A stretch of DNA of 64,000 nt. Origin: Myxococcales bacterium (GTDB taxonomy: Bacteria > Myxococcota > Myxococcia > Myxococcales > UBA5297). Of this stretch, positions 14,525 through 15,572 are shown in pieces (the first letter of the stretch is position 1; every line of letters begins with the position of its first letter). The notes under the pieces are model-generated. The model saw only the letters and a list, made by a program, of their open reading frames with translations, was not told where the DNA came from and did not search any database. The translations under genes and the position numbers were made by a program. The DNA lies in assembly GCA_049841135.1 (NCBI GenBank), contig JASGHK010000008.1, positions 147,272 through 211,271 on the forward strand, written 5' to 3'.

Positions 14525-15572
14525 ATGTCGAAGGTCAGCGAGAAGCTCAAGGCCATCGCCGCGGCGGTGGGGCAGATCGAGAAGCAGTTCGGGCGCGGGG
14601 CCATCATGCGGCTGGGCGGCGAGGGCGAGGAGCAGAAGGTCCAGTTCATCCCCACGGGCTCGGTGGGCCTGGACGCCGCGCTGGGCGTCGGCGGCTACCC
14701 GCGCGGCCGCGTCATCGAGGTCTTCGGCCCGGAGTCTTCGGGCAAGACCACGCTGGCGCTCCACGCCATCGCCGAGGTGCAGAAGCAGGGCGGCGCCGCC
14801 GCCTTCGTCGACGCCGAGCACGCGCTCGACGTGGGCTACGCCCGCAAGCTGGGCGTCAAGGTCGAGGATCTGCTCATCAGCCAGCCCGACACCGGCGAGC
14901 AGGCCCTGGAGATCGCCGAGCAGCTGGTGCGTAGCGGCGCCATCGACCTGGTCGTCGTCGACTCGGTCGCGGCGCTCGTCCCGCGCGCGGAGATCGAAGG
15001 CGAGATGGGCGACCAGCACATGGGCCTGCAGGCGCGGCTCATGAGCCAGGCGCTGCGCAAGCTCACCGGCGCGGTGTCCAAGTCCGGGGCCAGCGTCGTC
15101 TTCATCAACCAGCTGCGCCAGAAGAATCGGCGTGATGTTCGGGAACCCGGAGACCACCACCGGCGGCAACGCGCTCAAGTTCTACGCCAGCGTCCGCCTG
15201 GACATCCGCCGCATCGGCCACGTCAAGGACGGCGAGCAGGTCATCGGCGGCCGCGCGCGGGTCAAGGTGGTCAAGAACAAGGTCGCCCCGCCCTTCCGCG
15301 AGGCCGAATTCGACCTGCTCTACGGAAGCGGCATCGCCCGCACCGCCGAGCTGCTCGACCTGGCCTGCGAGCGCGGGCTGGTCGAGAAGAGCGGCGCCTG
15401 GTTCTCGGTCGCGGGCGAGCGGATCGCCCAGGGCCGCGAGAAGGCCTGCGAGTGGCTGCGCGAGCACCCGGCGGCCATGGACGAGATCGCCTCGAAGCTG
15501 GCCTCGGCGCCGGCGCCGGTCCCGGTGCCGGAGCTGACGGAGGAGGCCGAAGCGCCGATGGCCCAGGCCTAG
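14525..15572 (+). CDS. recA: Recombinase RecA, with an apparent +1 frameshift near 15125
   Basis: Full RecA signature: [19 protein letters not shown], the FINQLRQK motif, then [28 protein letters not shown] in the +1 frame. One extra A in AAGAATCGG versus the expected AAGATCGGCGTG. Confidence 0.85.

Follow-up and report, generated by a model that had tools for sequence, protein, structure and literature searches.

A +1 frame break in recA beside a disrupted comM gene of a Myxococcales bacterium: a probable consensus error at GATC and GAGCTC sites

In the 64,000-nt stretch of a Myxococcales contig analysed here (the window), recA is interrupted by a single extra nucleotide and lies next to a comM gene that has been cut by a mobile element. 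Is this recA a genuine pseudogene, as a sequence-only reading of the region had implied, or does the break come from the assembly? Based on the analyses described below, we consider it very likely that the extra A is a base-calling or consensus error of a long-read metagenome assembly, probably a modification-dependent one, and that recA is an ordinary, intact gene in its ancestral place.

The frame break in recA

The recA gene spans positions 14525-15572 of the forward strand, from an ATG at 14525, preceded by a GGAGG-like ribosome-binding site, to a TAG stop at 15570-15572. Its length, 1048 nt, is 1 mod 3, and its frame as deposited is not uninterrupted but changes at 15125 (Table 1). The extra nucleotide converts CAGAAGATCGGC into CAGAAGAATCGGC. 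In a deletion scan, dropping G15124, A15125 or A15126 gave an uninterrupted RecA of 348 aa, and tblastn with two related RecAs as queries split the gene at the same place, into 14525-15124 (frame 2) and 15123-15533 (frame 3). The earlier description of recA as split by a +1 frameshift thus holds, as does the placement of the extra nucleotide after codon ~200, following FINQLRQK; the first residue after the shift, proposed to be G, is I (IGVMFG). Without repair, the open reading frame (ORF) stays open to 15916 and encodes 463 aa in total. Its tail (15127-15916), which begins NRRDVREPG, is no genuine protein segment. On the 3′ side of the shift we found no further lesion in recA: there is no stop codon, and the tblastn identity to relatives is retained at 78-83%.

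The repaired RecA matches the Pfam domains RecA (PF00154, 1-261/262, E=1.9e-139) and RecA_C (PF21096, E=1.5e-19), and carries the Walker A P-loop GPESSGKTT and the L2 DNA-binding loop motif. The extra base falls within the L2-coding part, a loop that we take to lie where it does in E. coli RecA. Because the break sits in this DNA-binding loop, a recA with the extra nucleotide would be non-functional, in agreement with the sequence-only reading. Canonical bacterial RecAs (E. coli RecA and Myxococcus xanthus RecA1 and RecA2) share the domains, motifs and size of the window protein once one base is removed; their frame is continuous, whereas that of the deposited recA is broken inside the L2 loop. 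Judged by these comparisons, the repaired gene is predicted to encode a canonical RecA in all respects save the continuity of its frame.

Table 1. Features of the recA-comM region, of the mobile element and of the other affected genes. Bases in square brackets are the inserted ones.
Feature	Position	Strand	Evidence or remark
recA codons 1-200 (M1 to K200)	14525-15124	+	MSKV...FINQLRQK, Walker A included; 87-89.5% identity to L081/L082 RecA; Pfam RecA after repair
Extra base, one of two A's (15125/15126)	15125	+	GATC to GAATC, AAGATCGGC to AAGAATCGGC; deletion scan and DNA alignment
recA codons 201-348 and stop	15126-15572	+	+1 frame, ends MAQA*; tblastn 78-83% identity; RecA_C after repair
Out-of-frame read-through tail of the unrepaired recA ORF	15127-15916	+	ORF list; codon-position HMM exits the frame at 15126
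comM 3′ remnant (residues 214-508 of 508)	13539-14426	+	Pfam Mg_chelatase and Mg_chelatase_C; tblastn 85% identity to L081 ComM
Element/comM junction, in the Walker-A coding region	13517-13550	+	Three-way DNA alignment; blastn starts at 13517 (L082) and 13548 (L081)
Mobile element, lower GC (60-68%)	1-13550		Left of the comM remnant
Toprim/primase-like protein	370-1971	-	In the mobile element
Serine recombinase/resolvase domain	within 3417-4784	+	In the mobile element
Abi_2 abortive-infection protein	5275-6351	-	In the mobile element
Collagen-repeat protein	11546-12196	+	In the mobile element
HTH_17 excisionase-like protein	12892-13353	-	In the mobile element
459-aa gene (26690-28070), GACC[C]TC or GAGCTC[G]ACC beside a GAGCTC	27524-27527	-	Repaired 459 aa, orthologue 457 aa
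673-aa TPR gene (28429-30451), GA[A]GCTC	29451	-	TPR scores about double after repair; orthologue 664 aa
788-aa TPR gene (34017-36385), GA[A]GCTC	34874	-	GAGCTC intact there in L086; orthologue 789 aa
788-aa TPR gene, second event, GAGCT[T]C	35007	-	Deposited MGC4122101.1 is this ORF with an out-of-frame tail
1988-aa DUF4388/DnaJ gene (40365-46332), GA[A]GCTC	41084	-	GAGCTC intact there in L086; DUF4388 spans the junction
Kinase-MshEN gene (51067-53160), GAGCT[T]C	51660	-	MshEN spread over three frames before repair
Kinase-MshEN gene, GAG[G]CTC	51767	-	MshEN 3-89/90 after repair
Kinase-MshEN gene, AAA to AAAA, CCAAA[A]CG, off both motifs	52729	-	Pkinase extension after repair
Fe-alcohol dehydrogenase, GAT[T]C	59182	+	Uncompensated 1-nt insertion relative to L083; repaired protein gap-free relative to eight homologues
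Fe-alcohol dehydrogenase, second event, GAT[T]C	59250	+	Insertion relative to L083; homologue alignment

Relatives of recA and the adjoining comM element

Among the matches listed from the protein collection, the closest intact RecAs are 85-92% identical to the repaired protein and 348-351 aa long, while named myxobacterial RecAs are 74-78% identical to it and the best recA locus in the species-representative collection is 76-77% identical. We aligned the window at the DNA level with two related loci, L081 (ENA contig_51940, RecA 87% identical) and L082 (GCA_037442205.1, RecA 85% identical). In both alignments, the window has one extra, uncompensated nucleotide at 15124/15125; the remaining gaps in coding regions are multiples of three or are compensated within a few bases. 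At the insertion site, high-GC relatives carry AAGATCGG.

These comparisons bear on whether recA could be expressed by programmed +1 ribosomal frameshifting or by transcriptional slippage at CAG AAG AAU CGG. Shifting by +1 here would give full-length RecA, and AAU is seldom used in this GC-rich genome, where T occupies 3% of third codon positions. The site nevertheless lacks a slippery sequence that would let the Lys tRNA re-pair (AAG to AGA), a Shine-Dalgarno-like stimulator upstream and any homopolymer run. Additionally, the motif was located in 30 relatives, all of which read in frame through AAGATCGG or synonyms of it (30/30), none of the 120 homologues listed shows a length anomaly of the kind expected from a frameshift, and the ten other insertions described below have different contexts. 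Given the missing slippery site, stimulator and homopolymer, and the intact frame of the relatives, programmed frameshifting and slippage were rejected; we regard them as exceedingly improbable.

The other biological reading is a genuine and very recent mutation, by which recA would be a fresh pseudogene in a cell that is RecA-less or uses a second recA elsewhere. The extra base does stand in the deposited sequence, and the adjoining comM is truly disrupted by a mobile element. The existence of a second recA, raised by the sequence-only reading as frequent among myxobacteria, has a precedent in M. xanthus, which carries recA1 and recA2 (PMC7029660). Within the 64,000-nt window, however, tblastn detected no second recA, and the recA itself argues against decay: it carries no second lesion, remains conserved, and differs from L081 and L082 by the single 1-nt change.

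As had been remarked before, no LexA box is obvious upstream of recA: none of the six published consensus types scanned (M. xanthus, E. coli, Gram-positive, Geobacter, Bdellovibrio and alpha-proteobacterial) matched with fewer than two mismatches, and the upstream regions of the window, L081 and L082 show no LexA-type conservation. A promoter and terminator scan around recA gave no matches.

The comM remnant ends 98 nt before recA, so recA does lie directly downstream of a disrupted comM, as first described; the 5′ part of comM was not found within the window by tblastn. In L081, an intact 508-aa comM stands directly upstream of recA. In L082, comM breaks off at the same residue as the window copy and foreign genes lie upstream, in an element that differs from that of the window and carries SLT and giant-protein genes. 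The ends of the two elements (13517-13550 in the window and 9002-9035 in L082) share ~30 nt (ACCCCGGRCATAYG...), which suggests that elements at a common attachment site in comM may form a family. Judging from these alignments, the comM-recA order is ancestral, and the nearness of recA to the comM insertion therefore means nothing for recA. The significance previously attached to this position is lost, since L081 keeps the adjacency with an intact comM.

The mobile element inside comM looks real. It is seen in part, over 13.5 kb, and its far end lies outside the window. In Acinetobacter, AbaR islands integrate into comM. The gene has also been treated as a target of other mobile elements, e.g., Tn7-like elements (PMC10293859). 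As with these comM-targeting elements, a large foreign segment interrupts the window comM; unlike the Tn7-like ones, the 13.5 kb of the element inside the window show no Tn7-type genes and instead contain a primase, a serine recombinase, an Abi_2 and an HTH_17 gene. Avoidance of GAGCTC in the element (1 site against 3.5-4.6 expected) was considered as support for a restriction system and dropped, because the deficit is not significant and other palindromes behave alike.

Further single-base insertions and their removal

Using a GC3 frame plot and then a seven-state codon-position HMM trained on the clean genes of the window, we located the recA switch at 15126/15127. Nine further same-strand switches of frame without a stop codon, among them those at ~27524, 29450, 34873, 35008, 41083, 51661, 51765 and 59241, were identified by the HMM between 13.5 and 64 kb. 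At 59241 the net shift is -1, as two +1 events would produce. A manual reading of the three frames resolved this switch into two events and added another at ~52729. Together with homologue alignments and Pfam, the HMM analysis gave ten further single-base insertions, which affect six genes besides recA in the native ~50 kb (Table 1). With recA, this makes 11 insertions in seven genes over 50.5 kb, or about one per 4.6 kb, and 11 of 11 are +1. The kinase-MshEN gene has three events, the Fe-alcohol dehydrogenase and the 788-aa TPR genes two each, and recA, the 673-aa TPR, the 459-aa and the 1988-aa genes one each. For the events at 29451, 35007, 51660 and 51767, and for the two off-motif ones, the exact position was assigned from protein sense and not from an orthologue with an intact motif at that spot.

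Deletion of the 11 bases left zero stop-less frame switches at both HMM penalties tried and restored all seven genes, with ORFs of 348 (RecA), 459, 673, 788, 1988, 696 (kinase-MshEN) and 390 aa (alcohol dehydrogenase). In the related metagenome-assembled genome (MAG) GCA_036504155.1 (comparison loci L083, L086 and L087), the syntenic genes encode 457, 664, 789, 1988 and 390 aa, against the repaired 459, 673, 788, 1988 and 390 aa. Domain matches were also extended by the repair: Pkinase from 55-254 to 1-254 of 263 model positions, MshEN from 11-89 to 3-89 of 90, and DUF4388 from 24.7 bits (1-70) to 54.2 bits (1-117/122). The TPR scores were about doubled, and Fe-ADH (2-168/168) and ADH_Fe_C (1-193/194) became continuous across both junctions. 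A Pfam scan of the unrepaired ORF pieces did not settle the TPR and unknown-family genes, which the orthologue comparison later did. Against eight homologues, the repaired dehydrogenase aligned gap-free through the junctions LEGIRKARPAL and ARDDLAMASLLGG. In comparisons with L083 and L086 (81-87% DNA identity), the predicted insertions were the only persistent single-base insertions inside genes, and L086 has an intact GAGCTC exactly at 34873 and 41083.

Two deposited proteins of the source MAG show the effect of these insertions. MGC4122101.1 is 100% identical over 536 residues to the unrepaired ORF 34775-36385 (reverse strand), with its last ~75 residues out of frame, and MGC4122114.1 is a 495-aa kinase fragment (51402-52889, reverse strand) with an out-of-frame tail. 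Both are chimeras of a genuine N-terminal part and an out-of-frame tail generated by the insertions. The record that holds MGC4122101.1 also includes two intact neighbours (locus tag QM765_47440 and others). The window thus belongs to a highly contiguous, presumably long-read MAG, in a contig of 1,652,613 nt, and this MAG already carried the frameshifts when it was deposited. Neither recA fragment was present in the protein collection when looked up, which would fit a depositor annotating recA as a pseudogene and so favours a recent mutation. Exact-product look-ups of the recA read-through ORF, three neighbouring genes and P0253 gave no match.

The repaired gene at 51067-53160 (reverse strand) encodes a 696-aa Ser/Thr protein kinase with a C-terminal MshEN domain, which we take to be of the c-di-GMP-binding type; the gene is absent from the syntenic place in L083, where a CBS gene and a 1063-aa gene adjoin. 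The 1988-aa protein (40365-46332, reverse strand) contains tandem repeats of 78 nt x 11.4 (94% identity) and 114 nt x 4.5, together with 108-nt units, which encode a charged coiled coil; DUF4388 and DnaJ occupy its C-terminus, its orthologue is also 1988 aa long, and its coding region has an extreme AT skew. In L086, a GDSL-lipase gene (6000-6666) lies between the HhH-GPD and peptide deformylase genes; it is missing at 39686-39699 of the window, where 13 nt separate the flanking homology blocks. At 37704-38780 (reverse strand), a Roadblock/LC7 gene adjoins a small Arf/Ras-like GTPase gene, both labels coming only from the 87%-identical L086 orthologues; we take this arrangement to resemble the myxobacterial MglB/MglA polarity pair.

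Motif bias and the origin of the insertions

Nine of the 11 insertions lie in words derived from GATC or GAGCTC, with the A or T doubled in GATC or a base added inside GAGCTC. The derived words scored (GAATC, GATTC, GAAGCTC, GAGCTTC, GAGGCTC and GAGCCTC) cover 0.9% of the native region, and the binomial P is 3e-17 for exact placement, 2e-13 with 5 nt of slack and 2e-10 with 15 nt of slack; the widest slack allows for the uncertain position of events placed by protein sense. Eight events duplicate the A that follows the G in GATC or GAGCTC, or the complementary T. The two off-motif events are homopolymer extensions. The recurrence is thus far above chance, and removal of the bases restores genes that resemble their orthologues.

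A recent mutation of recA is difficult to reconcile with this pattern. The ten insertions of the same type in six neighbours, among them the Fe-alcohol dehydrogenase and the kinase gene hit three times, would also need to be real; a motif bias with P of at most 2e-10 would be left to account for; and one frameshift per 4.6 kb would be incompatible with a living genome. We therefore consider a fresh recA pseudogene very improbable, and the real pseudogene implied by the sequence-only reading is not supported, given ten like insertions in six neighbours, concentrated at GATC and GAGCTC.

A site-specific enzyme could also account for events so strictly tied to motifs and all of one direction. The insertions could then be real products of a motif-targeted process not yet described, linked to methylation or restriction (e.g., repair going wrong after a restriction or mismatch enzyme has nicked the DNA), and recA and six neighbours would only just have been inactivated by it. 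To our knowledge, no process adds a single A at GATC or GAGCTC. Moreover, the affected genes are otherwise undecayed, losing them would probably kill the cell, and a technical cause gives the same pattern with nothing new assumed. We consider a process of this kind highly improbable.

The reading that we favour is a consensus error: the recA frameshift is read as an artefact because the same +1 type recurs in six neighbouring genes at GATC and GAGCTC. Insertions in one direction, at two palindromes, in otherwise conserved genes and at about one per 4.6 kb are the pattern of systematic consensus error, not of gene decay. In the mechanism that we propose, a palindrome (GATC or GAGCTC) would gain one base, mostly a second copy of the A that follows the G (a T when read from the other strand); methylated sites would be miscalled in a modification-dependent way, and polishing would have left the errors in place. 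Dam-type N6-adenine methyltransferases modify the A of GATC. Because the A doubled in GATC is the target of this methylation, a modification-dependent miscall would be the most economical mechanism. The technical cause, and the methylation behind it, are what we infer from the pattern.

Errors of a comparable kind have been described in long-read data. In a nanopore assembly benchmark, ~70% of consensus errors were in Dcm motifs (Wick et al. 2019, PMC6591954); as in the window, they affected short palindromic motifs, persisted into the consensus and broke ORFs. Homopolymer errors formed the second class in that benchmark, and the window likewise has two off-motif homopolymer extensions. The motif of Wick et al. 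is Dcm CCWGG and the errors are substitutions, whereas the window has one-base insertions at GATC and GAGCTC, and a long-read platform and methylation are presumed for it. Fragmentation of ORFs by indel errors in long-read assemblies has been documented (PMC11649196; PMC9262707). According to a preprint, methylation-linked nanopore errors are mainly substitutions (bioRxiv 10.64898/2026.01.14.699587), whereas the window events are insertions. Our literature search found no paper on A-doubling at GATC or GAGCTC or at 6mA sites. Also counting against an artefact, which would be an error deduced from the assembled sequence, the affected sites are only ~3 of 176 GATC (~2%) and 6-7 of ~69 GAGCTC (9-10%).

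For the biology of this bacterium, the recA "pseudogene" is not to be counted. With about one frameshift per 4.6 kb, gene-content and pseudogene statistics derived from this assembly would be badly distorted. The comM element nearby is real biology, but ordinary; in L082, a different element occupies the site. The pattern of errors itself hints at methylation of GATC and GAGCTC in this organism.
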